From: a virus
Lineage: Duplodnaviria; Caudoviricetes
IMG/VR virus record: IMGVR_UViG_3300032305_000764
Coordinates: 1 to 63,973 of that record
Reading direction: 5' to 3' (one strand)
DNA length: 63,973 nucleotides
Shown: positions 1,474-59,650 of the stretch, piece by piece
Numbering within the stretch: the stretch's first letter is position 1
Layout of the letters: every line of letters begins with the position of its first letter
Made by a program: the position numbers and the translations under genes
Notes under the pieces: generated by a model
Database searches by the model: none
Seen by the model: only the letters and a program-made list of their open reading frames with translations
Told to the model about the DNA's origin: nothing

Positions 1474-1944
1474 TTATTTAGAACCAGAACCGAAAGTCAC
1501 CTCTGTAGATCGTTCCGAAAACTTTCTCATGTGAGGATGATTTTCACGCATATAGTTTTGATCAACAGACTCCATCTGAGCTTGATTTTGCTTAGCGAAG
1601 TATTCTTCGCGCTGCTTCAAGTACTCTTCTGGAATTCTGCACAGTAGCAGACCTCCAATTTCAATACCGCCTTTAAACTGGCCGTCTGAGACCGGATTGG
1701 TCATTAACTCGGGGTAGTCTTCGGCCTTCACAGGCTCGTATCCCTCCCTGAGTTTCGATGAGATGTTTCTGGCATCTGATTGCCCCAAAGATTCCACACG
1801 TATATACCGATGTTTCCAACCCGGACGTTCATCCGGCATGGGCAACGTATCGGGAAGTCTCCACGATTCAATGCGTTTAAACGATGCTTCGCGGGTCTCT
1901 TGTGTACGTGCGTCGCGCTTTTGTGCTTTAAGATCTTCCATCAT
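1474..1944 (-). CDS. Hypothetical head-module protein
   Basis: 156 aa, overlaps the stop of the upstream gene. Confidence 0.6.
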   Translation of the reverse strand: MMEDLKAQKRDARTQETREASFKRIESWRLPDTLPMPDERPGWKHRYIRVESLGQSDARNISSKLREGYEPVKAEDYPELMTNPVSDGQFKGGIEIGGLLLCRIPEEYLKQREEYFAKQNQAQMESVDQNYMRENHPHMRKFSERSTEVTFGSGSK

Positions 1945-2906
1945 TCACCTCTATTAAGAATTGCTACCTGTTTTGCGTATTCCTCTGTCGATATCCCAAG
2001 CTTGCGAGCTAACGCAACTTGTGAAGCTTTCAGTTTGACACGATTAGGCGGGGTGCTTCGTGTTGCGGGCGCAACTACAGAAGCTGACTTTGCTCGGCGC
2101 GATGATTCTTCATCATCCGCTGGTCTGGCCCTTTTTGGTTCAGGGGGGTCATCCTGTTCGCTCTGAGTGTCAAAGTACTCAGGAAACCTTTTGCGCATAA
2201 CGCCGTCGATAGTTTTGAAATACTCATCACTGCCGACATAGTCGGCACCATACTCTTTTTGCAGCTTTTTGTCAAGCCCCATTGCAAGCATAGTCATCTC
2301 GTCGTCAGATCCAAACCAATCTGAGTTGTCTTTGACCCATTTTTGGGTTTTGGGACTTATTCTTTGCTCGGGTTGGCGCTCAGGAATTCTAAAATTATCC
2401 TGAACTTCTACCGGCCTCATGGTGCTTGCGCGATCCATTTCAAGCGCGGCTTGGGTAATTTCCCTTTGGGCGGTGGCTAATTTCTCTCCGTCACCCTGTT
2501 CAAAGGCTTCTTTCAACCTTTTTTCCGCAGCTTCCATTTTGATCTGCGCGGAGGATTTGGAGTTTTCAATTAGAACTTCGCTGCCAAATTTGATTTGCTC
2601 TTTGAGTTTTTTGTTTTCCTCATAAACTGCTCGGGCAAAATCTTCTGCGGCCAACCGTTCTTTTTCGGCGATTTCACGGGCGTTTTTAGCTTCGTGGTAA
2701 CCGTCCGCAAACTTTTTCATGCGGCGCTGAACGCGAGAGCCGTAGTCTTTTAGCTCATCGTCAGATGGCTCTACATCTTTTTCATCGACAGTATTCTGTC
2801 GAGCAGGAGGAAGATCGTTTTCTATTTCAATATCGATCTCTGGTTTTTCGACGGTTTCCACTTCATCTGGAAATTTAAATTCGTCGCCTTTGAATTCTGT
2901 AGTCAT
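1941..2906 (-). CDS. Putative scaffolding protein
   Basis: Acidic N-terminus, long coiled coil, C-terminal helix pair (QVALARKLGISTEEYAKQ); lies between portal and capsid genes. Confidence 0.6.
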   Translation of the reverse strand: MTTEFKGDEFKFPDEVETVEKPEIDIEIENDLPPARQNTVDEKDVEPSDDELKDYGSRVQRRMKKFADGYHEAKNAREIAEKERLAAEDFARAVYEENKKLKEQIKFGSEVLIENSKSSAQIKMEAAEKRLKEAFEQGDGEKLATAQREITQAALEMDRASTMRPVEVQDNFRIPERQPEQRISPKTQKWVKDNSDWFGSDDEMTMLAMGLDKKLQKEYGADYVGSDEYFKTIDGVMRKRFPEYFDTQSEQDDPPEPKRARPADDEESSRRAKSASVVAPATRSTPPNRVKLKASQVALARKLGISTEEYAKQVAILNRGE

Positions 2907-2915
2907 AGTTCCTCC

Positions 2916-3329
2916 TTATGCTGCGCGGGCGATTGCGCGTGGATCTTCAACAACCGCATCCACCGAATCATCATTAATGATTCTGAATTCGCGGCCATGA
3001 ATCTTTAGGCGGGTGCCCGAGTTTGGACGAACAATGACAAAGTCGCCCTCTTTACAGGACGGGCCGCTTGGGAAGCGGGTTTTGTCTTTATAACAATCCG
3101 GGCCAAGCTTGACGACAAAAAGCACTGGGGTCAGCACCTCTTCGTAATGCATGGTTTGGGTTGGTTTAATTAACGAACTATCCGCAAACTCTTCCATCGC
3201 TTCGGGTACGACCGTCAGGATGTGGTAAGTTTTTGGGTCTGGCAATTGTTTTGCCTTTTCCACCGCCTCTTGATTGAGAACGTTGGACAGATCGACCGCT
3301 AGGCCGAGGTTTACTTCACTCATCGTCAT
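2916..3329 (-). CDS. GroES/Cpn10-like co-chaperonin
   Basis: LPDPKTYHIL...VVKLGP...KEGDFVIV...GTRLKIHGREFRIINDDSVDAVV matches the GroES pattern. Confidence 0.8.
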   Translation of the reverse strand: MTMSEVNLGLAVDLSNVLNQEAVEKAKQLPDPKTYHILTVVPEAMEEFADSSLIKPTQTMHYEEVLTPVLFVVKLGPDCYKDKTRFPSGPSCKEGDFVIVRPNSGTRLKIHGREFRIINDDSVDAVVEDPRAIARAA

Positions 3330-3513
3330 GCTCCAGTTTCTTCACAAGGTCGTTAATTAACTCTATAGCGATGCCAAGACCTTGGAGCACACCGCATAGG
3401 CTTTTGTACTCAGCAAAGTCTTTCGCAGAACCGCGAGAGCACGCGAGTTCATACGTTTTTCTTTGCTGGGATAATTCATTGACCAAATGGTTCAATAGTT
3501 GCGTCTCGTTCAA
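3316..3513 (-). CDS. Small hypothetical protein
   Basis: 65 aa, helical, coupled to portal and GroES genes. Confidence 0.65.
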   Translation of the reverse strand: MNETQLLNHLVNELSQQRKTYELACSRGSAKDFAEYKSLCGVLQGLGIAIELINDLVKKLEHDDE

Positions 3514-5963
3514 GTTTTCTCCTTCTTGGGTTGAAATCTCTGCTGGGTTGATTGAGCTTTATGCTTGGCAATATCAATACCCAGCTTGGCTCCCTCAAAC
3601 TCCATTTGGTTTTTGAGCTTGTCTTTTGCCGCTGCGGCTGTGGCTGCGACTTGCATGGCTGCAATTTCCTTCTGGGCCTCAATACGGGATTCTTCAACTC
3701 GGATCCGGTCTGCTTTTTCGGCTGCCTCAATTTGCTGTTTCTGCATTTTGAGTTGCAGCTCCTGCTGTTTAAGCTGGAGTTCTTGCATTTGCATCTGGAC
3801 AACGGGATCCTGCATTTGCTGTTGGGCAGCTTGTTGTTGGGCCTGTTGTTGATCCCTTTGAAGAAGCTGCTGAGAAGCTTGTGCGGCTTTGATTGCGATT
3901 TGTTCCGCAACTTCATGTGGGACATGTTTGTTGTTTTCCTCGTCAGGAATAATCAAGCCCATCTCCTCTTGCACTTGCCTGCGGTATTCCAAAGCAATGT
4001 GTTCGTTGATATGGGTCATCGCCGCAGCCATAATTGCTTGAGCTTGCGGGTTCATCTGCATCAATTGCTGGATCTTGGGATTTTGGATAGCAGACATGTG
4101 AACCTGAATGTGAGCTTGGTGGTTTTGCTCAATAAAGGCTTTTACAGGCTTACCCGTAAGCACATTCTGGTTCTCTGTGATTGGGTCGGTTGGAACCATG
4201 TCATCTTCAATTGGAACCAATTTAGATGCGTTTTTGATCCCCAATACCTCAATCATCTGCCTGTGAAGTAGTGGCATGTCATAAAATTGGGGAGAGGACT
4301 GCGCCAACTGGAAGACGGCTTGGTACTGAACAATCTTTTGGGCCATCGTGGCAGCGTTAGGATCGCTGACGGGGATGACATCAACCAAGTTGTAATCGCT
4401 CTGTCTGGCTTTGCGACTTCCGGCTTCTGGCTCGTAGTCGTACTCCGTAGGGGCATAGTCGGCAATGATGGCTTTGAGCAGTTTAAACTCTTGCTTCATG
4501 CTGAAATGCATACGGGCCTGAACTGCGCCCATCACCTTCAGAGTTCTTTCCAAGATAGCCAAAGTCGTCCCCACGGGGGCTTGGCTTGACATGTCGGAAA
4601 CCTTCATATCCCCAGCCGAAGCAAACTGCCTTCCCTCTTGAACAATGTTTTGGAACAAAGCAAACAACACTTGGCTTGGTTCTTTGTACGGAAGTGGTAA
4701 AATGTTGTCACGGATCGATCCAGAAGGCACATCTACGTCCCTAAATTCCCCGGGCTGTATAGGCGTGTCGTCTCCCTTGATCCTCAAGCCCCTAGCTTTC
4801 AACCCGCCGGGCAGGTTGCTCAAGGTTCCTGCGTCCACCAACTGGCGAATCAGCATCGTGGCGGACTTTGCATATCCACCAATTAGGTGAATCAATCCAT
4901 ACCCATAGAACCCAAAACCGGGGATGTACTGGTAATGGACAAAATGTTGACGCTTTAGATGCAACTTGTCTTCTTCGTACCAATTCCTCCGAACGGCTAG
5001 GATGGTTCGGGTTCCCTTTTCGATGGTGACAACATAAGGTAGAGCGATACCTGTCACTTCCCCCTTTTTGTTTTTGTGCTCAAAACCTTTGAGGTTGATG
5101 TCCACATGCATCTCTAGGATGCGGTAGCGATCATCTTGAATAGCAGAAACGCCCATCTCCTCGGCTTTCTGTTTTTCGATGTCATCTAATTGATGGTAGG
5201 GCTCACCCAAGTCCACATCTAGGTAGAAACCCCCCTCTTGGAGCTTACGGATTTCGTTTTCATTTTTGCGCATGACATGGGTAACACGGGGAGAACTCTC
5301 AATCTCTGACTCACCATACGGAACCACGATGTCTTCTGCCGGGATAAAGACGGCTTTTTGTCTGCCCAAGTTGGGATCAAAGTAGATCTTTTTAAAAGCT
5401 GAACCTGAAATAGGCAGATTCCAAAGAAGCTTTTCATGCTCCGGGCGGTATTCCGACATCACCTCAGTCAACTGGAAGTTCATATCCTCCCGAACACGGG
5501 ATGCGGCTTCTTCAACTTCTGGAGTGTCTTTGCCAATAATGTGGGTTTTGACCGGCCCGGCAGCGGGGAAGGTCTCCATAATCCCTTCTGACTGGAACCT
5601 TACAACAGACTCCGTCAGCATAGGGTGAAACACTCCGCAGGCTCCCTGCCAAGGTTCTGTTCTCTCTTCATATCGCAGACCCAAAAGCTTTAAACCTTCT
5701 ACATAGGTTTGCATCCACTCCTTGCGATCCATGACATCTTTGTCAAAATCCTCAACCAAGTCTTCGGCAAGGCTTTGCAATTCGGATTCATCAATGTATT
5801 CGGCCAGATTGGCATCAAAATCTTCCTCGGTTTCGGGTGCCGGAGAAAGATCGATTTCCAAATCACCGATCCCAATGATGACCTCATCTGGGTTTTCGAT
5901 TTCTATCTCGATGGGTTCTGCCTGCAAACCGACCGGTGCTTGGTACAAAGATTTTTCTAACAT
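3510..5963 (-). CDS. Portal protein (P22-like, with Q-rich C-terminal barrel)
   Basis: 817 aa; downstream of TerL; GFGFYGYGLIHLIGG and GTLSNLPGGLK motifs; long C-terminal coiled coil. Confidence 0.85.
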   Translation of the reverse strand: MLEKSLYQAPVGLQAEPIEIEIENPDEVIIGIGDLEIDLSPAPETEEDFDANLAEYIDESELQSLAEDLVEDFDKDVMDRKEWMQTYVEGLKLLGLRYEERTEPWQGACGVFHPMLTESVVRFQSEGIMETFPAAGPVKTHIIGKDTPEVEEAASRVREDMNFQLTEVMSEYRPEHEKLLWNLPISGSAFKKIYFDPNLGRQKAVFIPAEDIVVPYGESEIESSPRVTHVMRKNENEIRKLQEGGFYLDVDLGEPYHQLDDIEKQKAEEMGVSAIQDDRYRILEMHVDINLKGFEHKNKKGEVTGIALPYVVTIEKGTRTILAVRRNWYEEDKLHLKRQHFVHYQYIPGFGFYGYGLIHLIGGYAKSATMLIRQLVDAGTLSNLPGGLKARGLRIKGDDTPIQPGEFRDVDVPSGSIRDNILPLPYKEPSQVLFALFQNIVQEGRQFASAGDMKVSDMSSQAPVGTTLAILERTLKVMGAVQARMHFSMKQEFKLLKAIIADYAPTEYDYEPEAGSRKARQSDYNLVDVIPVSDPNAATMAQKIVQYQAVFQLAQSSPQFYDMPLLHRQMIEVLGIKNASKLVPIEDDMVPTDPITENQNVLTGKPVKAFIEQNHQAHIQVHMSAIQNPKIQQLMQMNPQAQAIMAAAMTHINEHIALEYRRQVQEEMGLIIPDEENNKHVPHEVAEQIAIKAAQASQQLLQRDQQQAQQQAAQQQMQDPVVQMQMQELQLKQQELQLKMQKQQIEAAEKADRIRVEESRIEAQKEIAAMQVAATAAAAKDKLKNQMEFEGAKLGIDIAKHKAQSTQQRFQPKKEKT

Positions 5964-5971
5964 GTTGTTTC

Positions 5972-6520: not shown

Positions 6521-6533
6521 CGTTGCTGATTCC

Positions 6534-7196: not shown

Positions 7197-7204
7197 ATGA
7201 TTCC

Positions 7205-8716
7205 TTAAACCGTGTAATACCTTTCAGATCTGCGTCCTTTGAAAATTGCAGGCTCGTCCGGCTCATCACTAGGGAGAGTGACTAAACCCCCTCGCCTAAA
7301 TCTCAAAATGGCCTGCGATGTCGAGTCAACCAAGTCATCATGGTCTCCGTTAGGGAAGGAGGCGCATTCATCCATCAACTCATCTGCCCACCTTGTGTCC
7401 GGGCACCAGACCAAACCAGACTCAAACAACGGCGCAGCAGCGTTTACACGCGCGATCTTATCGCTTCCCTTGCTGGGTGTATATTCCTGAATGGGAACAC
7501 CTATCGCCTTAAGCTCATAGATCAAGGGCGCTCCAGCGGCCTTCTTCTCAATCAGGACTAGATCGGGATTCCAGTCCTTGTAGTACCGAAGAGCGGTTTC
7601 CTTCAGTTCCGGGAACTCCATCCTCGCTTTAAACGAGTCTAGACAGATGATGTTGGCCTTGTAATTCCCCAAATCATCTGGATGTTGGAACACGCCCCAG
7701 ATGGTTAGGGCGGAATAGTCGGCACGATTGTTCTTTTCAAAGGCCGTGTCCCAAGATTGGATGATAAAATCGCATTGAGGAGGGCGATCTTCTTGCCAAA
7801 TTCTCCAATGCTCTCGCTTGATAATCGCCCCTTCCTCTGATGTGGGGTTTTGTTGGTACTGCGCATTCCATTTAGAGGTTGGAATCTCAGCCTTAATCGC
7901 TTCAAGCTCTTCTCTCTTCCAAAATCCGGGCCAAAGAGGGGTTCCTGACGGCAAAATCGCCGGGAATTCAATCACTTCCCAGCCATCTACGCCCTCTTTC
8001 TCGCTGTTTTTAAGAATTTGGCCTGTTAAATCTCTCTTAGCCCATCGGGTCATCACAATAATGATGCTCCCGCCCGGCTGTAAACGCTGCCTAGGCCCCG
8101 ATGTGTACCATTCATACACATTGTCATAGACTGCGGGATTGTTCTGCTTAGCTTCCTGCTCAGAATGCGGGTCATCAATGATCAAAAGATCTGCGCCCTT
8201 ACCAGTTACCGCTCCGCCGACACCAATAGCGAAGTAGTCACCTCCGGCGTTTGTGTTCCACCGCCCGGCAGCCTTAGAATCCGACGACAACTTGGTATCA
8301 AACACCTTCTCATACACGGGAGACTGGACAAGATTCCTAACTTTACGGCCAAAACCAACAGCCAACTCTGCGGTGTGTGCAGTCTGAATGATCTTCTTAC
8401 TGGGATGTATTCCCAAAAACCACGCAGGAAGCAAATAAGACGCAAACTCTGACTTGGTATGCCTAGGAGGCATGTTGATGATCAATCTCCTCAACTCTCC
8501 CTTAGCCACACGCTCAAACGCATCTGCCATGATCTGATGGTGTTTACCCGAAATAAACCCATCCCACATCTGTGACACAAAAAAGATAAAGGATTCATGG
8601 CATCTCTCCACCTTATCCAACTCCAACAACTGTTGGATCTTTCTGCGCTCATCCAGACCCACCATAGGGATCAAGGACTCATAGTCGGCAATCTCCTGCT
8701 TCGTTAGGAGCGTCAT
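7205..8716 (-). CDS. terL: Terminase large subunit
   Basis: Walker A INMPPRHTKSE, Walker B LLIIDD, nuclease SWDTA and HDDLVDS; start placed at the ATGA overlap at 8716. Confidence 0.95.
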   Translation of the reverse strand: MTLLTKQEIADYESLIPMVGLDERRKIQQLLELDKVERCHESFIFFVSQMWDGFISGKHHQIMADAFERVAKGELRRLIINMPPRHTKSEFASYLLPAWFLGIHPSKKIIQTAHTAELAVGFGRKVRNLVQSPVYEKVFDTKLSSDSKAAGRWNTNAGGDYFAIGVGGAVTGKGADLLIIDDPHSEQEAKQNNPAVYDNVYEWYTSGPRQRLQPGGSIIIVMTRWAKRDLTGQILKNSEKEGVDGWEVIEFPAILPSGTPLWPGFWKREELEAIKAEIPTSKWNAQYQQNPTSEEGAIIKREHWRIWQEDRPPQCDFIIQSWDTAFEKNNRADYSALTIWGVFQHPDDLGNYKANIICLDSFKARMEFPELKETALRYYKDWNPDLVLIEKKAAGAPLIYELKAIGVPIQEYTPSKGSDKIARVNAAAPLFESGLVWCPDTRWADELMDECASFPNGDHDDLVDSTSQAILRFRRGGLVTLPSDEPDEPAIFKGRRSERYYTV

Positions 8717-8937
8717 AGACCCAGATCCTCGGTCTTCTTCACAATCCGAATGGAGTTGCATTTATGGGGCTTGATGGTCAACAAGCCCTGATCCTGTAAT
8801 ACATGGATTACACGATGAACGTTGGACTTCGACTTCAACCCTATCCCACGGGCTATTACCGAGTAGGAAGGAGCCACCCCATGAATCTTCATGTAAGCCT
8901 TAATGAACTCAAAAATCAGTTTGTGTTTATCTGACAT
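8713..8937 (-). CDS. LexA-type winged-HTH DNA-binding protein (no protease domain)
   Basis: IFEFIKAYMKIHGVAPSYSVIARGIGLKSKSNVHRVIHVLQDQGLL resembles the LexA N-terminal domain. Confidence 0.8.
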   Translation of the reverse strand: MSDKHKLIFEFIKAYMKIHGVAPSYSVIARGIGLKSKSNVHRVIHVLQDQGLLTIKPHKCNSIRIVKKTEDLGL

Positions 8938-8990
8938 GATGCGAGTTTAAACGTAATTGTGAACGTTCGCAAGCGTTTAAATGTGAAAAT

Positions 8991-9141
8991 ATATAGGGGG
9001 GGGTGTTTTCTAAAAATTTATATAGGGGGGGGTGGTTTAGGAATGCGAACGTTCACAGAAGATAGGGGGAACATAATTGGGTGAGTGGAATACAGTGCAG
9101 GTCGGGGGAGGGGGCCCCAACTGGAATATGGGGGGTAGGGG
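8991..9141 (+). repeat. G-tract cluster with tandem ATATAGGGGGGGGTG repeats
   Basis: 15-mer at 8991-9005 and 9020-9034; seven G runs of 4 or more within 150 bp. Confidence 0.85.
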
Positions 9142-9984: not shown

Positions 9985-10034
9985 GTAGTCACCTCATACT
10001 GTATGTTTAAACATGACGTTCGCATTCTAATGAG

Positions 10035-10354
10035 TTATCAACAGCATGTAAACAGGTTGTGGATATCTTTGTGTTATCCACAGGAAGTTGTCCACAGGTT
10101 GGTAGCCTTTGCCTACTGACCCCGTTTAAACCATAGCATTTAGGCTATTTACTGTATGTTTGTACATGCCTCTAGAATCGATTTAAACGCGTTTTGAGCG
10201 ATTTTCGGTCTTCAAGCCACTACCCCCTTGGCACCCTCGCGATCGCCTCACCTGATCGATTCTGATCGATTTGCCTATTTTTTAATCAGGTACTTATCCA
10301 CACCTGACAGTCTTTTATTCACACCCCCTAAATGAACATCTTGTGGATATCTTT
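10035..10354. promoter_or_regulatory. DnaA-box cluster, candidate replication origin
   Basis: TTATCCACA at 10074 and 10294; TTATTCACA at 10315; one-mismatch boxes at 10035, 10058, 10088, 10342. Confidence 0.7.
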
Positions 10355-10421: not shown

Positions 10422-10451
10422 TTGACATGCCCGTTTAAATCTCCCTACAAT
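10422..10451 (+). promoter_or_regulatory. Sigma70-type early promoter
   Basis: TTGACA-N18-TACAAT upstream of the + strand operon. Confidence 0.7.
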
Positions 10452-11296: not shown

Positions 11297-11306
11297 GGGG
11301 GGTTTC

Positions 11307-14941: not shown

Positions 14942-14943
14942 TC

Positions 14944-45031: not shown

Positions 45032-45034
45032 AAT

Positions 45035-45972: not shown

Positions 45973-45975
45973 ACG

Positions 45976-46358: not shown

Positions 46359-46362
46359 GTTT

Positions 46363-46823: not shown

Positions 46824-46870
46824 TTTGTTTTCCTTTCAATGTGCCGCCAAGGTCGGGTGGCGACTTCCCG

Positions 46871-47092: not shown

Positions 47093-47107
47093 GATATTTC
47101 CTTTAGG

Positions 47108-49531: not shown

Positions 49532-49543
49532 GTTAAATACTCC

Positions 49544-51640: not shown

Positions 51641-51844
51641 TTAAATTCCTTTCGGGGTAATGCCCCTCATATATGCCGTGCCATGAGCAACCTTTTTCAT
51701 CACTAAGAGCGTGTCGTAAGACTGGCTAATGAAATCCAATAGTTCTTGTTTTTTGACGACGCCGATTTTGTACATTTCATATTTCTCTTGTACGTCATCA
51801 GCAACGCGGATTAGCCATTCACGAATTCTCTCAGCTTCGGTCAC
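51641..51844 (-). CDS. Small hypothetical protein
   Basis: 67 aa, abuts the collagen gene. Confidence 0.55.
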   Translation of the reverse strand: MTEAERIREWLIRVADDVQEKYEMYKIGVVKKQELLDFISQSYDTLLVMKKVAHGTAYMRGITPKGI

Positions 51845-52040
51845 TCTCTAATATCCTCGTCTCAGCAGTTTCGTAAAACCGCTTTATCCATTCGATATTC
51901 TCAGACAACTGATCCCTGTCATCTTCGCCAAGTGGGTCTTCAATCAAATCCGCAAGATCACGAATCTCACTTTCAAGTTTTGAAAATGCGTCGTCCACGG
52001 TCTTTATGGAATCAAAATTAAAGTTTGGCAGAGCTTTCAT
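51831..52040 (-). CDS. Small hypothetical protein
   Basis: 69 aa, acidic and helical. Confidence 0.55.
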   Translation of the reverse strand: MKALPNFNFDSIKTVDDAFSKLESEIRDLADLIEDPLGEDDRDQLSENIEWIKRFYETAETRILESDRS

Positions 52041-52068
52041 AAGAACGGGGGGTGATTAGCCCCCCTCC
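52041..52068 (-). terminator. Intergenic hairpin, possible terminator
   Basis: G6-TGATTAG-C6 followed by GTTCTT on the minus strand (weak U-tract). Confidence 0.45.
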
Positions 52069-52072
52069 TTAA

Positions 52073-53851
52073 TTACAGGCTAGCAGCGCTACGGCAGATC
52101 ACTTTGACCTTGAGAGCGGTAGACAAGTACACTTTAACGGTGTTGCTGTCTTGCTCTTCAACGGACACGATGTCGTTGTAGTACTTACCGTTGGCACGCT
52201 CAACTTGCACGCCCACGTCCACGAAACCGTTGTTCAGGTTGTGGGTGATGGTGTGCACGGTAGCAGCAGCGGATGCTTGGAAGGTGTGCACAGTAGCGTT
52301 GTAGTCACTACGGATTGCGGTGTCGGCGGCTGCACGAGCAGAGGCTTCGGCAGTTACAGCAGCTTGACGATCAGAAATCTCTGTAGAGATACGTCCATCC
52401 AAAGCAACTTCAGCAGCTTGAGCGCGGCTGATTTCGCTGTTCAGGTCGCTACGCAGGGAAGCGTCAGCGGCAGAACGGGCAGATGCTTCGGCTGTATCGG
52501 CAGCAGCGCGGGCTGTAGCTTCAGCAGTAACGGCAGCTTGACGGTCAGCAATCTCAGTGTTTAAGTCAGCACGGAGACCAGCTTCAACACCTTCTGCGCG
52601 AGTCTTTTCAGTAGCAATCGCGGTAGCGTTGGTTTGGTCGCCAGTTTGACGAGCAGAGATTTCTGCGTTCAGGTCAGAACGCAAAGACGAATCAGCAGCG
52701 ATACGTGCAGACTCTTCAGCAGTAACAGCGGCTGCGCGAGCGGCAGACTCAGCAGTCAGATCAGAACGCAGACCAGCTTCTACGCCTTCAGCACGAGTTT
52801 TCTCAGTGGCGATTGCAGTAGCGTTGGCTTGCTCAGCAGCTTGTGCACGAGCAATTTCAGCGGTCAGATCGGTGCGGAGGCCAGCCTCAACGCCTTCAGC
52901 GCGTGACTTCTCGGTAGCGATAGCGGCTGCATTGGTAGCATCACCAGCGGCGCGAGCAGTAGCTTCGGCAGAGTCAGCGGCAGTACGTGCAGCAGTTTCA
53001 GCAGTCAGGTCTGTACGCAAGCCAGCTTCCACGCCAGTAGCGCGGGTAACTTCAGCAGCCAGATCGGTAGTCAGGGTCTGCTCTGCGGCTTGAGCACGAG
53101 AGATTTCGCTAGACAGGCCAGAGTTAACTTCGTTGATAGCACCAACCAAGTCAGACTTGTAGGTGGTGTTCAGGTTGTTCAGGTTACCGATCTTGCCGCT
53201 GGACTGTGCTTCCAAGCTGGTAATACGGCCATCCAAAGCTGTGTCAGCAGCAGCGCGGGTAGAGGCTTCTGCGCTAACAGCGGCTTGGCGATCCGAAACT
53301 TCAGTAGTGATACGGCCAGACAGAGCGGCTTCAGCGGCAGCAGCACGGGTCTCTTCAGCGTCAACTTCAGCTTGAGTTGCGGCAATCATGCCTTCCAACA
53401 CGTTGATGATGTTGGGGTCGTTTTCCAGAGCGTTAGCTAATTCGGTGATGGTGTCCAAAACCGAAGGAGGGATACCGCCGAGCAGGTCAGCTTTAGTCTG
53501 GTCAATTTTAGCGTCCAGAGCAGCTTCAGCAGCAGTAGCGCGTGTGATCTCAGCAGACAGGTTAGAAGCGATGGTGCCTTCAGCGGCAGTAGCGCGAGTT
53601 ACTTCGGCAGAGATAGACTGCTCGATAGCCAACTTCTCTTGAGCAGCAGACTCAGCGTCCTTGATGGTGCGAACAACAACTGAACCAGAGCTGTTCAGGC
53701 CGGAATAGCGGAGTACCTTGTCGGTAGTGTTGAACCAAATGCGACCAGCATCAAGTGGGGATGGGTCGGAAGCTAAACGCTCAATGTTGAGGTTTTCTAC
53801 GTAGGCACCAGCCGCGAGGGTAATGCCGTGAAATACTGGAAAATTAGCCAT
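52073..53851 (-). CDS. Ala-rich repetitive coiled-coil fibre protein
   Basis: Many AE..RA.A(A/V)E repeats; LDTITELANAL; C-terminal ITHNLN beta domain. Confidence 0.8.
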   Translation of the reverse strand: MANFPVFHGITLAAGAYVENLNIERLASDPSPLDAGRIWFNTTDKVLRYSGLNSSGSVVVRTIKDAESAAQEKLAIEQSISAEVTRATAAEGTIASNLSAEITRATAAEAALDAKIDQTKADLLGGIPPSVLDTITELANALENDPNIINVLEGMIAATQAEVDAEETRAAAAEAALSGRITTEVSDRQAAVSAEASTRAAADTALDGRITSLEAQSSGKIGNLNNLNTTYKSDLVGAINEVNSGLSSEISRAQAAEQTLTTDLAAEVTRATGVEAGLRTDLTAETAARTAADSAEATARAAGDATNAAAIATEKSRAEGVEAGLRTDLTAEIARAQAAEQANATAIATEKTRAEGVEAGLRSDLTAESAARAAAVTAEESARIAADSSLRSDLNAEISARQTGDQTNATAIATEKTRAEGVEAGLRADLNTEIADRQAAVTAEATARAAADTAEASARSAADASLRSDLNSEISRAQAAEVALDGRISTEISDRQAAVTAEASARAAADTAIRSDYNATVHTFQASAAATVHTITHNLNNGFVDVGVQVERANGKYYNDIVSVEEQDSNTVKVYLSTALKVKVICRSAASL

Positions 53852-53908
53852 GTGTCACTCCAAAAAATGAATTAGTTTGTAGGTCTCGACACATCCGGTT
53901 GTGGGGCA

Positions 53909-54118
53909 CTATACCACCACGAATCGCCTTAGTGTAAGCAATTCTTGATCAACTTTCAAGGCATCGCTTGCTGCATGTTGTACACGCCACTCCATCTCAG
54001 GAGTGTCGCTCTCTAAAAAAAATTTATTGTCTTTAAAAGCCAACAAAGTCGCCCCGTGTGCCTTCATAAAAGCGGCAAGGTGGATGTCTCTTTTAGGAAC
54101 CGCGATCTTGTAAGTCAT
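53909..54118 (-). CDS. Small hypothetical protein
   Basis: 69 aa, RDIHLAAFMKAHG. Confidence 0.55.
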   Translation of the reverse strand: MTYKIAVPKRDIHLAAFMKAHGATLLAFKDNKFFLESDTPEMEWRVQHAASDALKVDQELLTLRRFVVV

Positions 54119-54127
54119 GTGAGTACT

Positions 54128-54424
54128 TTATAGGATAAATGTGACAATTGCTGTGCCCGCGACAGGGGCTGTAAAATAAATTTTTATTTCACTATCTGTT
54201 GTAGCTTCGACACCCGCATAGATTGCGCGTCCGGTGCTGTCTAACAAGGCAACACTCACCTTGTTCGTTTCGTATTCGTGTGGCAGTACCCAAGAAAGTT
54301 GAGCCGTCTCAAACGTGAAAACTTTCGTTCTCGTTGTTGCTGCGCCTGTTGCCGCAGAACCGTTTGTCGTCCCGTAAACTTGCCCGTACACACCACCTGC
54401 TGAAATGCGGGTGTATGAGATCAT
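54128..54424 (-). CDS. Small beta-sandwich virion protein
   Basis: SWVLPH...VSVALLDSTG...IKIYFTAPVAGTAIV, similar to modules in the two neighbouring fibres. Confidence 0.6.
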   Translation of the reverse strand: MISYTRISAGGVYGQVYGTTNGSAATGAATTRTKVFTFETAQLSWVLPHEYETNKVSVALLDSTGRAIYAGVEATTDSEIKIYFTAPVAGTAIVTFIL

Positions 54425-54425
54425 G

Positions 54426-54746
54426 TCAGTTTACACCTGCTTGTATTACTTGTAGCGTCGCACTCCCGGAGGTGTACGACGTCAGGGTCAATCGGACTGC
54501 GGTGATGGGATAGCCGTAGTAACCGTCTTGCGTAGTGGTTTCTCCTGTTAGAAACTGAAACCAGAACTCTTCGTTCGGCACGCGAGTCAAGATGTCTTGA
54601 TACATGTGCTCTACGTTATACGTTAATACAGACCCAGCCGACACTAAAACCGCTACACCTACGTTAATCGGGATTACATTAAGATTAATCGGAAGCGGCT
54701 TACTACTCCCCACCGACGCTAAGGTGGTTGACATAATACGCGCCAT
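54426..54746 (-). CDS. Small beta-rich virion protein
   Basis: MARIMST...LTYNVEH...YPITAVRL...LQVIQAG; AAGGAG ribosome-binding site. Confidence 0.65.
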   Translation of the reverse strand: MARIMSTTLASVGSSKPLPINLNVIPINVGVAVLVSAGSVLTYNVEHMYQDILTRVPNEEFWFQFLTGETTTQDGYYGYPITAVRLTLTSYTSGSATLQVIQAGVN

Positions 54747-54757
54747 CTCTACTCCTT

Positions 54758-55189
54758 CTAAAAAGTACCGCCACTCACTCCCGGCCCCTGTGCGATAGAC
54801 ACAAAATCCGACCCGTTCCAAGCTACAATTACAGTTCGACCGGCGGGGATTGTAACCCCTGTTGTCGGCCCTGCGCCTCGTATCACAATGCTTTGTATGC
54901 CAGCAGTAGCATTACAAACCACATAAATCTTTGACTGCGCCGGGGCAGTTATGCTCCGTGTCGTGGAGCCATTTGCCGTCCACAAAATAACCGCTTGTCG
55001 GGCTTGGTTGGAAGCACCAGTTGTGGTGGTCAATGTCACATCTGCGTCTGTGCTGATGGTTGTTGTACCCGCCACGGCGGTATCAAGAAGAGATGTGATG
55101 GCGTTGTTAACCGTGTCGCCCCAAGTCCCTTGGAGTTCACCCTGAACGGGCAGTGCTAAGCCCAATAACGATGTGTATGCTGTAGTCAT
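54758..55189 (-). CDS. Tail fibre anchor/adaptor protein
   Basis: MTTAYTSLLGLALP..GELQGTWGDTVN; ends SGGTF. Confidence 0.7.
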   Translation of the reverse strand: MTTAYTSLLGLALPVQGELQGTWGDTVNNAITSLLDTAVAGTTTISTDADVTLTTTTGASNQARQAVILWTANGSTTRSITAPAQSKIYVVCNATAGIQSIVIRGAGPTTGVTIPAGRTVIVAWNGSDFVSIAQGPGVSGGTF

Positions 55190-55198
55190 GTGTTATCC

Positions 55199-55981
55199 TT
55201 ACTGGGAAATCAAATTCCAAGTGGTTGAGGCTCCGTCGTTAATAGTAGTCCAACTGGGGGTTTGCCCGTCATTGATATTTTGCCAGTTTGGCGTCTGGTT
55301 GTCATTAATAACTTCCCAAAGCAGCCGAACAATGAACTGATCCGCCGCCGTTGCGTTTTCCAATATCGTGCTGTAAAAAATAGCCGCCGCCGTAGCGGCA
55401 TCAACCGCAGAAGCCGACTCTGCTATAGAAACCCCGAAATTCTGCTTGCACGCAATAGCATCCACCCCAGAGGCAGATTCTGACACAACCGTGTTAAACG
55501 CACCCGAGGGACTTGAAACATCTAATCCTGCGGCGTTTTCACTAACCGCCCCAAAGAACACAAAGCTAGAACCTGTGGTGTCTAAACCCGAGGCGGCTTC
55601 AGCTATTTCGGAGTCAAAAGTCTGGGCTACTACCGTGATGTCTATGCCACTTGCAGCCTCACCTATGTTGCAGGCGAAGTTCTGTTGTGCGGATGTACTG
55701 TCAACCCCAGATGCGCCATCTGAGAAATTGAGCCTGTAAACAGCAGACGCACTTGTGGCGTCAACTCCTGACGCTGCTTCATTTACAGAGTTGTTTAGGA
55801 TTACTAGAGCGTTGGAGAAATCAAGTCCGCTGGCGGCTTCAACAATGGCTACATTAAACCCGCTAGACGCTACGGCGTCAGTATCGGATGTGGAGGCAGC
55901 ATCAGACACGCCCCTGTAATAGACGGAACCGCCCCAAGCAGCTTCACCCCATGTGCCGGAACCCCAGCCGCCCTCGGCCAT
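55199..55981 (-). CDS. Virion protein with about 20-aa E.ASG.D repeats
   Basis: GWGSGTWGEAAWG start; about 10 periodic repeats; W..INDG tail. Confidence 0.7.
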   Translation of the reverse strand: MAEGGWGSGTWGEAAWGGSVYYRGVSDAASTSDTDAVASSGFNVAIVEAASGLDFSNALVILNNSVNEAASGVDATSASAVYRLNFSDGASGVDSTSAQQNFACNIGEAASGIDITVVAQTFDSEIAEAASGLDTTGSSFVFFGAVSENAAGLDVSSPSGAFNTVVSESASGVDAIACKQNFGVSIAESASAVDAATAAAIFYSTILENATAADQFIVRLLWEVINDNQTPNWQNINDGQTPSWTTINDGASTTWNLISQ

Positions 55982-55982
55982 A

Positions 55983-56162
55983 TCACGCCTCGTCTAATTC
56001 ATCTTCGGTAAACCAACGCTCTTGTTCAACGCCGTTTACATCTGCCCATTTAACCAAGTAGGTTATTTCGCCCTCTTCACTCATGTTCAATTTAGTGATA
56101 GGGCCCTCTGGAATGACGGCTTTCAGTTTTACAAGATCGCCACGTACGAATTTTGTTGGCAT
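55983..56162 (-). CDS. Small SH3-like protein (59 aa)
   Basis: Translated by hand: MPTKFVRGDLVKLK...YLVKW...ERWFTEDEL. Confidence 0.6.
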   Translation of the reverse strand: MPTKFVRGDLVKLKAVIPEGPITKLNMSEEGEITYLVKWADVNGVEQERWFTEDELDEA

Positions 56163-56171
56163 GTTAGCTCC

Positions 56172-56753
56172 TTAAGTCGCAGTCAAGCTGAATGTATAGG
56201 TCACGTTCAATGTGTCGCCAGAGGCCACAACACGGTCACCGGGGGCTGAAAAATCAGAAGCCGAGAACAACACGCCGGTAGTTCCGTTCTTGGTGTTGTT
56301 GCTGATCAGGAAAGCCCCGCCCACTGTAGCTGTTGCATTAATGGTGTATGAAGCGGGTGAAGCAGAGTTAGAAGCCACTGAAGGATTCGCTGTAGTGGGT
56401 GTCCCAAAAGTACAAACAGGTCGAGTGGCATTGCTATAGGGTACGATTTCTGTAAATCCGGGATGGGATGCTGCGGTGTCGGTGGCAGTTGGGTTGTTGC
56501 TGGCCGCTGCGCCGTACAAACCAATATACCATGCGGCGGTGTAAGAACTGCCGGTGAAGTACTTGGCGTTCATGTCTTGCAGACCTTCGTTAACCACGAG
56601 GTTGTGAAGCTCTTGAGACCATTTGACTTGACCGTCTGCGCCCACACACTCAAGCGTGTAAACGCCGCATGCAGAAGCTTTGTCTGCATTGCCAGCCGCA
56701 CGGGTCAGAGATGCTGCTACAACATCAACTCCAGAAGATTTATCTAACATCAT
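56172..56753 (-). CDS. Hypothetical tail protein
   Basis: HNLVVNEG...WYIGL...GDTLNVTYTFS; start after AAGGAG. Confidence 0.7.
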   Translation of the reverse strand: MMLDKSSGVDVVAASLTRAAGNADKASACGVYTLECVGADGQVKWSQELHNLVVNEGLQDMNAKYFTGSSYTAAWYIGLYGAAASNNPTATDTAASHPGFTEIVPYSNATRPVCTFGTPTTANPSVASNSASPASYTINATATVGGAFLISNNTKNGTTGVLFSASDFSAPGDRVVASGDTLNVTYTFSLTAT

Positions 56754-56763
56754 GTTTCGCTCC

Positions 56764-57189
56764 TTATGCGATACGTATAATTGCCGAAGTATTGGTAACA
56801 GCGGGAAACTGCACCGTGAAAGTGGTGGTAGAGGTTTTGTCGTTACCAAAATCTAAAACACAAACCGTTGGGTTGCCGCCGCCGCTCTTATAAATCAAAG
56901 CCCCGCGAGCGGTTAAAGCAGCCGTCCAGACTGCGTTAGCAAAAGACAAATAAGCAACGTCTCCGGAATTTCCTATTGTAGGCGTTTGATCTACCGTGAG
57001 AGTGTAACCTCCGGCGGTGTATCCACTAGCCACAACTTCCCCGATAGGCGTGTAAACGCTCGTTGTCTGATCCAATGTGGCTTGGTTTGTGTACAAAGCA
57101 ATCTTGAATGTGTCGGTCGTAAAGTTGTATTGACCATTCGCAAGGCCAGTCTTGAACACATTGCAGGAAAAATTTCCAGTAAACGCCAT
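56764..57189 (-). CDS. Hypothetical tail protein
   Basis: DTFKIALYT...GYTAGG...ARGALIY...LDFGNDK. Confidence 0.7.
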   Translation of the reverse strand: MAFTGNFSCNVFKTGLANGQYNFTTDTFKIALYTNQATLDQTTSVYTPIGEVVASGYTAGGYTLTVDQTPTIGNSGDVAYLSFANAVWTAALTARGALIYKSGGGNPTVCVLDFGNDKTSTTTFTVQFPAVTNTSAIIRIA

Positions 57190-57848
57190 TACGTCACCGC
57201 CTGTCTAAACTGACCAGAACGATAAGCATCTTGACGCTCCATACCATCGCCAAGGCGTTTCGCAAGAGCAAGGGCTTCGGTGTACTTTCCGTTGTACAAA
57301 GTGACCATGTCGGCCTCACCCTTCATGTAGGTGATAGCCTCTACCAGAGTGCCGTACAACAAAACGCTGTCAAAATTGTCGCCAAGCCATGTAGTGGCGG
57401 CTGTCACAATTGATTCTGGATAGTAATAATAGTGTAACTCTACGTTGTAGACCGCATCTGGGGTTGGGCCTAGGATAAACGAAAGTTCGTTTGTAATCAC
57501 GTTGGACACCACTGTCGGGCCAAATAAGGCGTAATACTTGGGGATGGCGGTATCTGTCGGGCTTGGGTACGCCTGTCTTATGAAGTTGACATCCTTGTTC
57601 AACAAATACTCGTACATCCCAGTGCCGTCAATCACAGCCATCGAGTAAACCGCTAAGAAATCATTTGGGCAAGCTAGATATTTGTTGTTTGTAGATGTAA
57701 CACCTGTTACGTTTTTACGTATAGAGGGAAACTGAACGGAGTTGTAGATGCGCTGCTCCGCCTGCTTAATGAACGTATTCATGTCAGCAGTGGGGAACGT
57801 GTTCTCTGTGTAATCAGAGACGGCAGTTACAAGCTCCGTGTAGTTCAC
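57189..57848 (-). CDS. Head-tail adaptor / tail tubular protein A-like
   Basis: MNYTELVTAV...FIKQAEQRI...PKYYA...GPTPD...LLYGTLVEA. Confidence 0.7.
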   Translation of the reverse strand: MNYTELVTAVSDYTENTFPTADMNTFIKQAEQRIYNSVQFPSIRKNVTGVTSTNNKYLACPNDFLAVYSMAVIDGTGMYEYLLNKDVNFIRQAYPSPTDTAIPKYYALFGPTVVSNVITNELSFILGPTPDAVYNVELHYYYYPESIVTAATTWLGDNFDSVLLYGTLVEAITYMKGEADMVTLYNGKYTEALALAKRLGDGMERQDAYRSGQFRQAVT

Positions 57849-58102
57849 GCCATTGGCCCCCGAGCCATCACGCCTTTAGTGGCTGCGCCTGTTCCACGAA
57901 TCTTAATTCCGTCCGTCTTTACGGGTTGGTTAGATTCTTTTTTCATGAACGCAACACTTGGATTAAGCGTGTTGAGGTTGCTCTTGTCCACGCGAGTGTC
58001 TTTAACTTCGCCGCCGCTCATGGTGTGTGGCTCGGCATAGACGCTGGCTTGACCAACTTCTTTACCCATAAGTTTTTTGCTGAATGTAGCCATCTTAGCC
58101 AC
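57845..58102 (-). CDS. Small basic protein
   Basis: Ends IRGTGAATKGVMARGPMA. Confidence 0.7.
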   Translation of the reverse strand: MAKMATFSKKLMGKEVGQASVYAEPHTMSGGEVKDTRVDKSNLNTLNPSVAFMKKESNQPVKTDGIKIRGTGAATKGVMARGPMA

Positions 58103-58289
58103 CTCTGCCTGAACCGCGCTGATTCATCACGCGAGCCATATTACGACCATGCTTCATCAGCATTTCGTTGGTTACACCGCCTTTAGCCATTTTCTTGGCT
58201 CCGGGGTGCATACGTGATTCGTGACCCTTAACTATTTTTTTAGCTTCGGTGTCGGCAATCTTTTTCATTTCGCCCTTGTCCATGTTCAA
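58095..58289 (-). CDS. Small basic protein with KMAKGG tag
   Basis: 64 aa. Confidence 0.7.
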   Translation of the reverse strand: MNMDKGEMKKIADTEAKKIVKGHESRMHPGAKKMAKGGVTNEMLMKHGRNMARVMNQRGSGRGG

Positions 58290-58292
58290 CTC

Positions 58293-58721
58293 CTACGTAG
58301 TTACAACCGTTACTGTACCAAGTTCTACAGTTAACACCAAATTATTTGGGGTTAATACCGCATCACTACCCTGAGACCCTCCGACGGGGTTCCATCCCCA
58401 CTGGAAGATCCTACTTCCGCCCTCGTTGGTTCCGGATCCATCGGGGCCTGTCCCGCCGTTTACATTTGTCTGCAAACCGTTATTACCAGATAAATAATAA
58501 CTTCTGTCTGGCCGAGGATTCCTTAAACCTTGCGGATCATCAACCGGGAACATGCCCAACTGAAGCTGGGGGTGATCCGGATCCCAGCATTCCGGACAAA
58601 CGAGCAAATCATATCTTTTAAGCTTGACAATCTCCGTTTTAAGAACCTTAAGCTTAAACCTTTGACCACACCGATCACATTCGGCAATAGCGTGTTTGCC
58701 AGCGGCAAATCTGTTACCCAC
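58293..58721 (-). CDS. Zn-finger protein
   Basis: CDRCG...VCPECWDPDHPQL. Confidence 0.7.
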   Translation of the reverse strand: MGNRFAAGKHAIAECDRCGQRFKLKVLKTEIVKLKRYDLLVCPECWDPDHPQLQLGMFPVDDPQGLRNPRPDRSYYLSGNNGLQTNVNGGTGPDGSGTNEGGSRIFQWGWNPVGGSQGSDAVLTPNNLVLTVELGTVTVVTT

Positions 58722-58723
58722 CG

Positions 58724-59650
58724 CTATCTCCCAATATAAGTCTGTCTAGGCACCAAACGCAATGCAGCTTTTTCGTGGTCTTCGTATGCGGCTAACTCCC
58801 AAGCTTCGTCATATTGTTGCTTTAGAACTATCAGTCTTTCCATGCCGTTGGGCACTTTCATGGCAATTTGATACGCCAGACCAGCAGCCATACATGGGAT
58901 AAACCGGAATGGCACGTCCATGATGTTTACACCGCCTCCGGCGTCTTGAGTTCTGCGCAGTCTCCAGTAAACGAATTGGTACTGTTGTGCATTGTCTGGT
59001 GTGGGCCATACGGTTATGGCTGGAACTTGCTGCCAATAAGCTATGGCATTGTCTGCGTGTGCGGCTGCGGTTGTGTTTTGTTGTCCACGGAAACAGTTGT
59101 ACAAAACGTTTCCTTCAATGTATCCGTAATTGATGATTTCGGAGTCTATCTTGACAAACCCAGAAGCAGGTAGCCCGACGGTCGAATCAAGGGTAATCGT
59201 GGTGGCGGTACTTGTGATCGCCCCGTCAAGAGTTAAACCTGTTGGCGATGTCTGTCCGTTATAACGTTGAATCCAAACCTGAATAGGTCTGGCTTGCTGA
59301 ATCTTGTTCGGAATTGTGGCATACGTACTCACACTAATTCGGGTGATGGTTAAATCAGCCTGAGTTGCGGTATTGTTAGCGCCTGTACGTATGACGTGTT
59401 CCAGCAGATCAATGGTGTCATTGGGCAAAGCATAAGTGTTCTGCCCCTGAACAAAGTCAATTGTGCCCTGTTCAATTGTCCACAGATTGATGCCTCGGTT
59501 TGCCCAGTCGGCAAACATGATGTTTAAACTGCGTCTGGCTGTACGCAGGTCGTAACCTGTACGAAGTTCAGAACCCGCCCGCTCAAATGCCTCCTCGACC
59601 AACTCAGTTAGGTCTAGGTTAAACGCATTAGCGCCGGAAGTTGTTGCCAT
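58724..59650 (-). CDS. Second connector/adaptor-like protein with an inserted beta domain
   Basis: LVEEAFERAG...ARRSLN...WANRGINLW...VWPTPD...VPFRF.PC..AGLAY. Confidence 0.7.
   Translation of the reverse strand: MATTSGANAFNLDLTELVEEAFERAGSELRTGYDLRTARRSLNIMFADWANRGINLWTIEQGTIDFVQGQNTYALPNDTIDLLEHVIRTGANNTATQADLTITRISVSTYATIPNKIQQARPIQVWIQRYNGQTSPTGLTLDGAITSTATTITLDSTVGLPASGFVKIDSEIINYGYIEGNVLYNCFRGQQNTTAAAHADNAIAYWQQVPAITVWPTPDNAQQYQFVYWRLRRTQDAGGGVNIMDVPFRFIPCMAAGLAYQIAMKVPNGMERLIVLKQQYDEAWELAAYEDHEKAALRLVPRQTYIGR

Follow-up and report, generated by a model that had tools for sequence, protein, structure and literature searches.

The HIP1 word (GCGATCGC) of cyanobacteria is a property of host chromosomes and is linked to methyltransferases. 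The stoperators of Cluster A mycobacteriophages, the sites of the L5 repressor gp71, are asymmetric 13-bp words that are oriented with transcription and serve lysogenic silencing. The sites of Noc (NBS), SlmA (SBS), MatP (matS) and KorB (OB) are read by proteins of the ParB, TetR and ribbon-helix-helix folds and function in cell division or partition. Here we describe a genome-wide word, the palindrome GTTTAAAC, in a phage (Duplodnaviria; Caudoviricetes; IMG/VR record IMGVR_UViG_3300032305_000764), the whole 63,973 nucleotides of which were analysed and are called the window. We also describe the gene whose product we propose as reader of this word, a predicted SprT-like protease with a C-terminal zinc ribbon.

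The word resembles HIP1 in being an 8-bp palindrome that is hugely over-represented and lies in coding DNA in more than one frame, but it belongs to a phage lineage, where it accompanies a phage gene, and the open reading frames (ORFs) of the window include no recognisable methyltransferase. Like the stoperators, which are bound by a phage protein that controls its own promoter, it is a short word present in dozens of copies across the genome, genes included. It differs from them in being 8 bp long, palindromic or present in both orientations, and evenly spaced, in a genome with no integrase or repressor match; the candidate reader, moreover, is a zinc ribbon that is usually fused to a protease. 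The Noc, SlmA, MatP and KorB sites are likewise short palindromes, each read by one protein and spread over a replicon with a free region, although nothing in the window points to a function in division or partition and its free region is explained by module exchange. Unlike Chi hotspots, the word is palindromic, occurs across host phyla and is nearly absent (2 sites) from G044, a phage that shares the fibre module of the window.

SPRTN and Wss1 are activated by DNA structure and are not known to respond to a sequence word. The predicted window protein resembles them in its HExxH zincin core and in its layout, in which a small zinc-binding domain, the presumed point of contact with DNA, comes after the protease; it differs in that its tail tracks an exact 8-mer and also occurs without the protease. 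SPRTN is described as a DNA-binding protease (PMC5127644), and a SprT-like protease, gp46 of Lizalica, is described from Cluster AZ Arthrobacter phages (bioRxiv 10.1101/2025.05.26.655371). The latter is of the same family as the window protein, and the cluster members Crewmate and Snek have proteins 38-39% identical to it. The passages of the Cluster AZ report that deal with SprT, motifs, repeats or palindromes mention no genome-wide word, and neither 'GTTTACA' nor 'GTGTAAA' occurs in its text. In the text returned by our literature search, neither the word nor a connection between it and SprT-like proteins was described. On the evidence given below we hold, with moderate confidence, that GTTTAAAC is the cognate word of the small zinc-ribbon domain forming the tail of the SprT-like protein, and that its copies are docking sites selected on the DNA. 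The gene and its tail are as follows.

10724-11296, + strand: gene of the proposed reader, a predicted 190-residue SprT/SPRTN-like zinc metalloprotease (protein 10724-11293) with a C-terminal zinc-ribbon tail
11150-11293, + strand: segment encoding the reader's tail (approximately residues 143-190), K-x-Q-G-T-R-M-L-K ... C-x-C-G-Y-x-I-R-L-T-x-K-W ... C-x-C

Of all 8-mers in the genome, GTTTAAAC is the most frequent. The initial annotation had reported, from a hand count, 35 copies where about one was expected; all 35 coordinates proved exact, and dinucleotide-preserving shuffles (n=100), with a mean of 1.15 copies and a maximum of 4, agree with that expectation. The Markov and codon-shuffled controls that it had proposed were then applied. 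Shuffling of synonymous codons within genes (n=200) gave a mean of 6.33 copies (sd 1.75, maximum 11), counts that include the three intergenic sites left unshuffled, and where a third-order Markov model with the sites masked predicted 4.8 occurrences on the two strands together, 70 were counted. The reversed word CAAATTTG, which has the same composition, is present in the window as a single copy. Flanking sequence is uninformative, with at most 0.11 bit at every position within 40 bases, and the edges of the word are sharp. The abundance of one-mismatch variants that had also been reported holds for four classes (both strands, Markov expectation): GTTTAAAT with 14 against 3.9 expected, GTTTAAAG with 15 against 4.7, GTTTAGAC with 7 against 2.0 and GTTTACAC, the best-enriched inner variant, with 13 against 2.5. 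The remaining eight classes, however, stand at expectation.

Within genes both stop-free frames of the word are used, as had been claimed: 18 sites read xxG-TTT-AAA-Cxx (F-K), 14 read xGT-TTA-AAC (L-N) and three are intergenic, the third frame being closed by a TAA stop. The exact copies are listed below, with the state of relatives taken from aligned homologous positions.

1875-1882: F-K frame
4481-4488: F-K, portal gene; exact in G012, ATTTAAAC in G010 and G014
8945-8952: intergenic, 8 nt upstream of the start of the winged helix-turn-helix (wHTH) gene
10005-10012: intergenic, 21 nt upstream of the TerS start
10124-10131: intergenic, between two groups of DnaA boxes
11369-11376: F-K
11750-11757: F-K; exact in G009 and G011
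12754-12761: F-K
13741-13748: F-K; exact in G009-G012
15315-15322: F-K
17361-17368: L-N, primase-helicase; exact in G009 and G010
18161-18168: F-K
19345-19352: F-K, RusA-like gene; exact in G009-G012
20116-20123: L-N
20912-20919: L-N, Sak-like gene; exact in G010-G012
21891-21898: L-N
22159-22166: L-N
23878-23885: F-K
25035-25042: L-N
26008-26015: F-K, abuts the next ATG
27238-27245: L-N
27631-27638: L-N
30338-30345: L-N, polyvalent protein; exact in G011 and G012
31819-31826: F-K, polyvalent protein; synonymous GTTCAAG- in G009, G010 and G014
32473-32480: F-K
33052-33059: F-K; exact in G011 and G012, ATTTAAAC in G014
34013-34020: L-N
35818-35825: F-K
36641-36648: L-N
37941-37948: F-K
40836-40843: F-K
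41684-41691: L-N
42834-42841: L-N
45004-45011: F-K, last before the gap
59522-59529: L-N, the only one in 45012-63973; exact in G011
8945-45011: dense zone of 36 kb, holds all but 3 of the 35 exact sites (32), roughly one every 1.1 kb

The rich zone has 39 peptide contexts able to encode GTTTAAAC; 31 of them do carry it, and the contexts themselves are in excess (39 against 14.7 +/- 3.8 after within-protein residue shuffling, maximum 25, n=300). The poor zone holds 5 encodable contexts where the same shuffling predicts 6.8. Because so many contexts are used and contexts are in excess, synonymous choice is near saturation and residues have also been altered to create sites. The two frames, the synonymous shuffle and the excess of contexts together bear out the suggestion of a DNA-level rather than a protein-level cause. 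The asymmetric form GTTTACAC occurs in both orientations (14:7, 18:8, 16:23, 4:9 and 10:6) in genomes that are mostly transcribed one way, which argues that duplex DNA is read rather than RNA. Five sites of the window sit 56-62 nt after a start codon. A preferred placement at gene starts was dropped, since pooled distances to ORF starts in 11 genomes match expectation.

The sites are evenly distributed as well as abundant. Spacing in the dense zone has a coefficient of variation (CV) of 0.55, and none of 5000 random placements was as even. Even spacing also characterises R5C, Pan1, Crewmate, Snek, UNTPL and Floof (p <=0.03), with p = 0.055 for phage 4A; over eight genomes the CV is 0.49-0.61 and p <=0.03 in seven. 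Structural genes are evenly covered by sites in the actinophages, R5C and Pan1.

Conservation was evaluated by aligning the window to four complete relatives (G009-G012), whose proteins are mostly 40-80% identical to its own. Of 81 pairs of a site and a relative, 25 have the exact word where the alignment places it; among control 8-mers taken from the same genes at a distance of 30-150 nt, 22 of 787 pairs match. Sites are thus kept 11 times oftener (odds ratio 15.5). Where a site is missing in a relative, the same F-K is often spelled GTTCAAG, and sites also turn over between relatives. This check of synonymous positions, which the initial annotation had suggested, marks the word as a real, selected signal.

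Within the clade, the word accompanies the SprT-like gene. Eight relatives by TerL that have the gene carry 18-101 GTTTAMAC hits on both strands, whereas eight that lack it (four of them at least 98% complete) carry 0-5. All 52 loci retrieved via the SprT-like protein are word-rich, and in 51 no other 8-mer outnumbers GTTTAAAC. The one left over, L127, favours ATTTAAAC: in L127/G014 this form occurs 21 times against 1.8 expected, also at positions homologous to window sites, and the tail has Q-P-T-R where others have Q-[GST]-T-R. The pairing of an altered tail with an altered word hints at co-variation. A switched word GCTAAACA was considered for L010 and rejected, its 4 copies being in a single orientation and falling on A-K-Q codons.

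The association extends to isolated phages. SprT-like homologues were found by tblastn in 164 of 50,697 isolated phage records, and all 8-mers of 14 isolates from different hosts were scored against a third-order Markov model. GTTTAAAC is the top 8-mer in three (Dinoroseobacter R5C with 17 sites, Pseudanabaena Pan1 with 16 and Pseudomonas Persinger with 4). GTTTACAC/GTGTAAAC is top in five (Arthrobacter Crewmate and Snek, Streptomyces UNTPL, phage 4A and Microbacterium Floof), with 13-39 copies against 0.4-2 expected. These word-topped isolates span phages of Actinobacteria, Cyanobacteria, Alpha- and Gammaproteobacteria. Six isolates (Quenya, Eden, Brahms, Epa5, CN1 and ep3) have no top-ranked word. 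Apart from an endolysin match in ep3, the SprT-like protein is the only window protein found in the 14 isolates at E 1e-4. Tails of Quenya, Eden and Brahms are altered (K-S-R-S-G-[RK]-S-I-K ... V-V-S-I-S-K), and those of Epa5 and CN1 have no cysteines in the tail region; the altered residues may account for the missing word in the first three. By pattern count, Alexa (Acinetobacter) has 8 sites and KA2-1 (Klebsiella) 7, with one copy of the reversed word each. The doubly altered GTGTACAC has 0 copies in five actinophages, and a model of symmetric, independent 'GTKT' half-sites was rejected on that count.

Other words were seen in some of these isolates. In Quenya, Eden and Brahms (loci L155-L157 and L161-L165) the HIP1 word GCGATCGC ranks with the most strongly enriched 8-mers; it was considered as an alternative word for them and rejected, with 11-14 copies whose spacing does not exceed random placement in evenness (CV 0.81-0.91) and none upstream of the gene. 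CGATCG occurs 43-58 times in the same three phages and 2 times in Floof, which has the same host. Escherichia phage ep3 (L134) has the E. coli Chi word GCTGGTGG as one of its most frequent 8-mers, with 20 copies on both strands.

A reverse analysis selected genomes by the word alone. Viral contigs were scanned for three copies of GTTTAAAC 15-45 bases apart, which gave at least 124 stretches; from the 80 listed, 28 loci on contigs of at least 32 kb were chosen and 26 records (all but L236 and L277) were examined. Genome-wide counts gave 17 records with 21-54 sites and 9 records with 5-12. A SprT-like gene is present in 14 of the 17 word-rich records and in none of the 9 word-poor ones. The three remaining word-rich genomes (G020, G032 and G036) have no SprT domain even at E 1, and each encodes a stand-alone tail homologue of 50-70 residues (tblastn 1e-5 to 1e-6) with sites just upstream. 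Local tblastn of seven word-poor records returned neither SprT nor tail at E <=0.01, their few sites being local tandem arrays; G030 and G034, the other two, were covered by profile search only. The tail is therefore present in 17 of 17 word-rich and 0 of 7 word-poor records (Fisher p = 3e-6), and the protease-less cases show the word to be tied to the tail rather than to the protease. In the reader-free G038 (L364-L366), GTTTAAAC forms a tandem array with a 22-bp period in the terminal repeat (29-117 and 49346-49412), so the word can also form local arrays where there is no genome-wide system.

The candidate reader has a HELCH motif (HExxH) at residues 81-85, with H81, E82 and H85 invariant in 18 sequences, and scores 26.2 bits against the Pfam SprT-like profile PF10263 (E 7.8e-6), a narrow margin over the cut-off of 25.6. 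Its AlphaFold2 model has a predicted local distance difference test (pLDDT) score of 86. Residues 2-123 best match human SPRTN (6mdw; Foldseek E 7.4e-4; Z 8.0, root-mean-square deviation 3.8, 99 residues), followed by abylysin, Wss1 (5xbv, Z 7.5) and selecase; Z values of this size (7.5-8.0) can be common according to the structure-comparison tool. The alignment to 6mdw stops at model residue 123, so that the tail is not aligned to the zinc-binding domain of SPRTN. With motif, profile and protease-domain fold in accord, the protein is a predicted SprT/SPRTN-like zinc metalloprotease.

The tail is modelled as two short hairpins and a helix with paired cysteines, and neither Pfam nor NCBIfam contains a significant family for it. 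A word-index search with the tail sequence returned only 16 close relatives, and a profile search was used instead; the number of cluster representatives matched by this profile, built from 26 tails, was 2470 at E 1e-3, falling to 918 at E 1e-10. Many matches are only 48-140 residues long. Comparison of 42 of the best 150 matches with Pfam found 11 SprT-like proteins, one DnaJ, one terminase ATPase fragment, one YnfU and 28 with no family. In proteins P0115 and P0083 the tail follows other partners, in one case a DnaJ domain and in the other a terminase ATPase fragment; the terminase fusion is perhaps a gene-calling artefact. Alignment of the tails of word-bearing genomes gives the shared pattern K-x-Q-[GST]-T-R-[ML]-x-K, Cys, [CS]-G-[YF]-x-[VI]-R-x-[TS]-x-x-W, C-P-x-C.

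Sites also lie where a regulator of the reader gene might be expected. The reader gene is preceded, at a distance of about 10-80 nt, by a site in Persinger, Alexa, KA2-1, ep3, Crewmate, Snek, Floof, UNTPL and the three stand-alone cases. In the window, the two TTGACATGC promoters that had been described as holding GTTTAAAT in their spacers both exist.

10422-10451, + strand: sigma-70-like promoter TTGACA-N18-TACAAT, drives the rightward early operon including the reader gene; near-site GTTTAAAT at 10433-10440 within the spacer
63498 to about 63471, - strand: second TTGACATGC promoter, just downstream of the capsid-gene terminator; the GTTTAAAT near-site of its spacer is ATTTAAAC on the + strand, 63482-63489

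Upstream sites and near-sites in promoter spacers form the layout expected of a DNA-binding protein that limits its own synthesis. In the proposed mechanism, the tail would physically read the word, with GTTTACAC (13 further copies) as a minor accepted form. Selection on the DNA would have placed the word about every 1.1 kb over 36 kb through synonymous codons and through residues turned to F-K or L-N. The early-expressed protein could then dock at regular intervals on phage DNA and hardly anywhere on foreign DNA, and the near-sites in the spacers of the two promoters, one of which drives the operon of the reader, would provide feedback control. By analogy with the SPRTN/Wss1 family, the fused protease may then act on proteins sitting on phage DNA and clear them away.

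The initial annotation had pointed out that no exact copy lies in 45012-59521 and had suggested that the gap marks more recently acquired DNA. The exact-match count gave the same site-free interval, and comparison with other genomes supports the suggested origin.

45035-54118, - strand: site-free lysis and tail-fibre module, exchanged with a lineage having neither reader nor word

Genes of this module have no or only weak orthologues in G009-G014, and its closest relatives lie on contigs with 0-1 site. One such relative is G044, whose complete genome of 55.8 kb has 2 sites and lacks both SprT and tail. The proteins it has in common with the module, namely the endolysin, products of small genes nearby and a 592-residue fibre protein, are 91-94% identical, whereas its TerL and portal are 31-32% identical to those of the window. 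On this sequence comparison, the module is one that was recently exchanged between a lineage with the system and a lineage without it, and for that reason it has not yet gained sites. Early genes at 22489-23597 and 25338-25682 are also common to G044, with 54-100% protein identity and no exact site within them. The remaining poor zone (54.7-64 kb and 0-8.9 kb, conserved head and tail genes) is about three times poorer in G009 too.

An alternative to docking sites is molecular drive, in which biased gene conversion or homing by phage nucleases spreads the word and the zinc-ribbon protein is a passenger or guide. The nucleases to be considered are an exonuclease/Sak/RusA set and the following two.

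17911-18147: HNH nuclease
18144-18650: PD-(D/E)XK nuclease

The near-saturation of synonymous opportunities (31/39), the turnover of sites between relatives and the full recombination set would all suit such a process. Drive does not, however, predict even spacing or a site upstream of the reader gene in many lineages, the nucleases are not common to other word-rich phages, and near-variants are enriched whereas conversion drive predicts their depletion. We consider this explanation unlikely.

A second alternative takes a different phage protein as the reader, the small LexA-like wHTH protein encoded beside TerL, with the sites as operators of a global regulator. The initial annotation had put this gene (as 8713-8937) and the one at 21719-22039 forward for electrophoretic mobility shift assays.

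8716-8937, - strand: 74-residue LexA-like wHTH gene, just upstream of TerL
21701-22039: ORF of the second suggested candidate (21719-22039)
8961-8968, 9047-9054 and 19547-19554: palindrome GAACGTTC within TGTGAACGTTCGCA-like sequence, near the wHTH start and between the divergent RusA/exonuclease genes

Inside the clade, the wHTH gene co-varies with the word. It is present in every word-rich TerL relative whose contig covers the spot and absent from L016-L079; among the 65 more distant loci, which hold 7 GTTTAAAC sites in total, 64 lack it. A site lies 8 nt upstream of the gene, relatives carry arrays of 3-5 sites in the spacer between TerS and wHTH, and a small dimeric wHTH would suit a palindrome. 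The co-occurrence is nevertheless limited to the clade: no homologue was found at E 1e-4 in the 14 isolates, eight of which have the word as top 8-mer, and L010 has the gene but no site in 4.7 kb. The protein has, in addition, a conserved palindrome of its own, GAACGTTC, with two copies within 90 bp of its start and two at the same place in L001, and these copies are probably its operators. The wHTH protein is thus quite an improbable reader. The second suggested candidate matches no family and is not common to other word-rich phages, and the protein at 10724-11293 is a better candidate than either.

The third alternative is a signal dictated by the host, such as Chi-like protection, a HIP1-like drive by methyltransferase or repair, or a site for a nucleoid protein. 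An 8-bp palindrome in both frames is the pattern of HIP1, and GTTTAAAC is also the PmeI recognition site; both count in favour of this explanation. Against it, the phages in which the word or its one-base variant occurs have hosts among Actinobacteria, Cyanobacteria, Alpha- and Gammaproteobacteria. Even phages that infect a single strain, Microbacterium foliorum NRRL B-24224, differ: Floof has 16 copies of GTTTACAC while Quenya, Eden and Brahms have none, which argues against a host factor. G044, which has the fibre and lysis module of the window and for that reason probably infects the same host, carries 2 sites in its 55.8 kb. No methyltransferase was detected among 89 ORFs, although one might be supplied by the host. 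The proposal of binding sites for a phage or a host protein is therefore supported in its phage half, the sites tracking a phage gene across host phyla and being conserved at aligned positions, and its host half is very unlikely; a methylation mark or a HIP1-like host process, which had also been suggested, is unlikely for the same absence of a methyltransferase and the same difference between phages of one strain. The further suggestion of a packaging or recombination signal drew neither support nor contrary evidence. Finally, a by-product of codon-pair, dipeptide or low-order k-mer bias has next to no probability, for although TTT, AAA and AAC are common codons in the window, the codon shuffle, the Markov model, the single occurrence of CAAATTTG and the conservation of sites at aligned positions led us to reject it.

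Several points weigh against the zinc-ribbon tail as reader of docking sites. The basis of that proposal is throughout the co-occurrence of word and tail, and the genomes sampled are phylogenetically non-independent, representing an estimated 8-10 lineages. How often the word occurs in phages that have no reader was measured on only 8 + 5 + 7 records and 65 short loci. Inside the clade, the LexA-like wHTH gene co-varies with the word as well as the SprT-like gene does. Quenya, Eden and Brahms have a cysteine-containing tail yet no word, and isolates with a conserved tail can have modest counts (ep3 4, Alexa 8, KA2-1 7). The comparison of the tail alone with solved folds was not informative, the best match being at Z 2.8 and to generic zinc knuckles, and the preference of a monomer-sized domain for a palindrome has no explanation. 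Three word-rich genomes without the protease make the sites independent of a protease in cis, which weakens the protease half of the mechanism.

A broader interpretation of the word and its reader is possible, although we regard it as doubtful. Phages of many host phyla may mark their own DNA with an 8-bp word that is read every 1-5 kb by a portable zinc ribbon, so that usually a SPRTN-like protease patrols phage DNA only. Such a protease would remove proteins clamped or cross-linked on phage DNA, such as host nucleoid silencers, stalled translocases and defence proteins, and the virus would thereby possess a self/non-self system addressed by sequence. The pair of word and reader would be the basic unit, and the reader might lose the protease, as in the three genomes without it, or join a DnaJ domain.

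The remainder of the genome provides the context for this system. The IMG/VR record is complete at 63,973 bp with a terminal repeat of 123 bp, and Pfam and PHROGs scans revealed a podovirus-like complement of TerS, TerL, portal, SU10-type adaptor, tail fibres and endolysin. A CobS/CobT-like pair, a primase-helicase and a 3013-residue polyvalent protein are encoded as well, together with RusA, exonuclease and Sak as a recombination set. The same scans (89 ORFs against Pfam and 59 against PHROGs) gave no match to a DNA polymerase, an integrase, a methyltransferase or a CI-type repressor. Judged by TerL, whose identity does not exceed 59%, the closest isolated phages are 023Pt_psg01, DSL-LC04 and the Pelagibacter phages HTVC027P and HTVC023P; megablast of 20 kb of the window against isolated phages returned no match. 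Further features are listed below.

63554-63973 and 1-422, - strand: major capsid gene (Mu gpT-like), spans the record ends
about 8990-9037: two direct repeats, an A/T-rich sequence followed by TATATAGGGGGGGG, upstream of the wHTH-TerL genes
10035-10350: two clusters with a total of seven DnaA boxes (TTATCCACA, up to 1 mismatch allowed), flanked by the TerS gene and the rightward early promoter
11307-14293, + strand: MoxR/CobS-like AAA+ gene followed by a CobT-like vWA gene, directly after the reader gene
28790-37828, - strand: 3013-residue polyvalent virion protein with ART-PolyVal (ADP-ribosyltransferase), LPD38 and GP88 domains (Pfam)

A capsid gene across the record ends is consistent with a circularly assembled genome. 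The region of DnaA boxes is probably the replication origin, and since no DNA polymerase gene was found the phage may depend on the host replisome; TTATCCACA is also among the commonest words in the relatives L003, L006, L011 and L013. The direct repeats at about 8990-9037 could be a late promoter or a pac element, and the element with the TATATAGGGGGGGG repeats is inverted in L001. The trio of SprT-like, MoxR/CobS-like and CobT-like genes is syntenic in G009-G014.

Genome-wide words kept by selection on DNA are rare and mostly without a known reader, whereas here a candidate of about 50 residues can be named. This candidate occurs in culturable phages whose hosts are harmless (Arthrobacter, Microbacterium and laboratory E. 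coli), which makes the idea directly testable. The density of the word could also act as a clock for recently exchanged modules. If the tail does read the word, it would constitute a new compact module for sequence-specific DNA binding, and the fused protein would be the first SprT-family protease aimed by sequence instead of DNA structure. It would also give a virus a means to distinguish its own DNA from that of its host.

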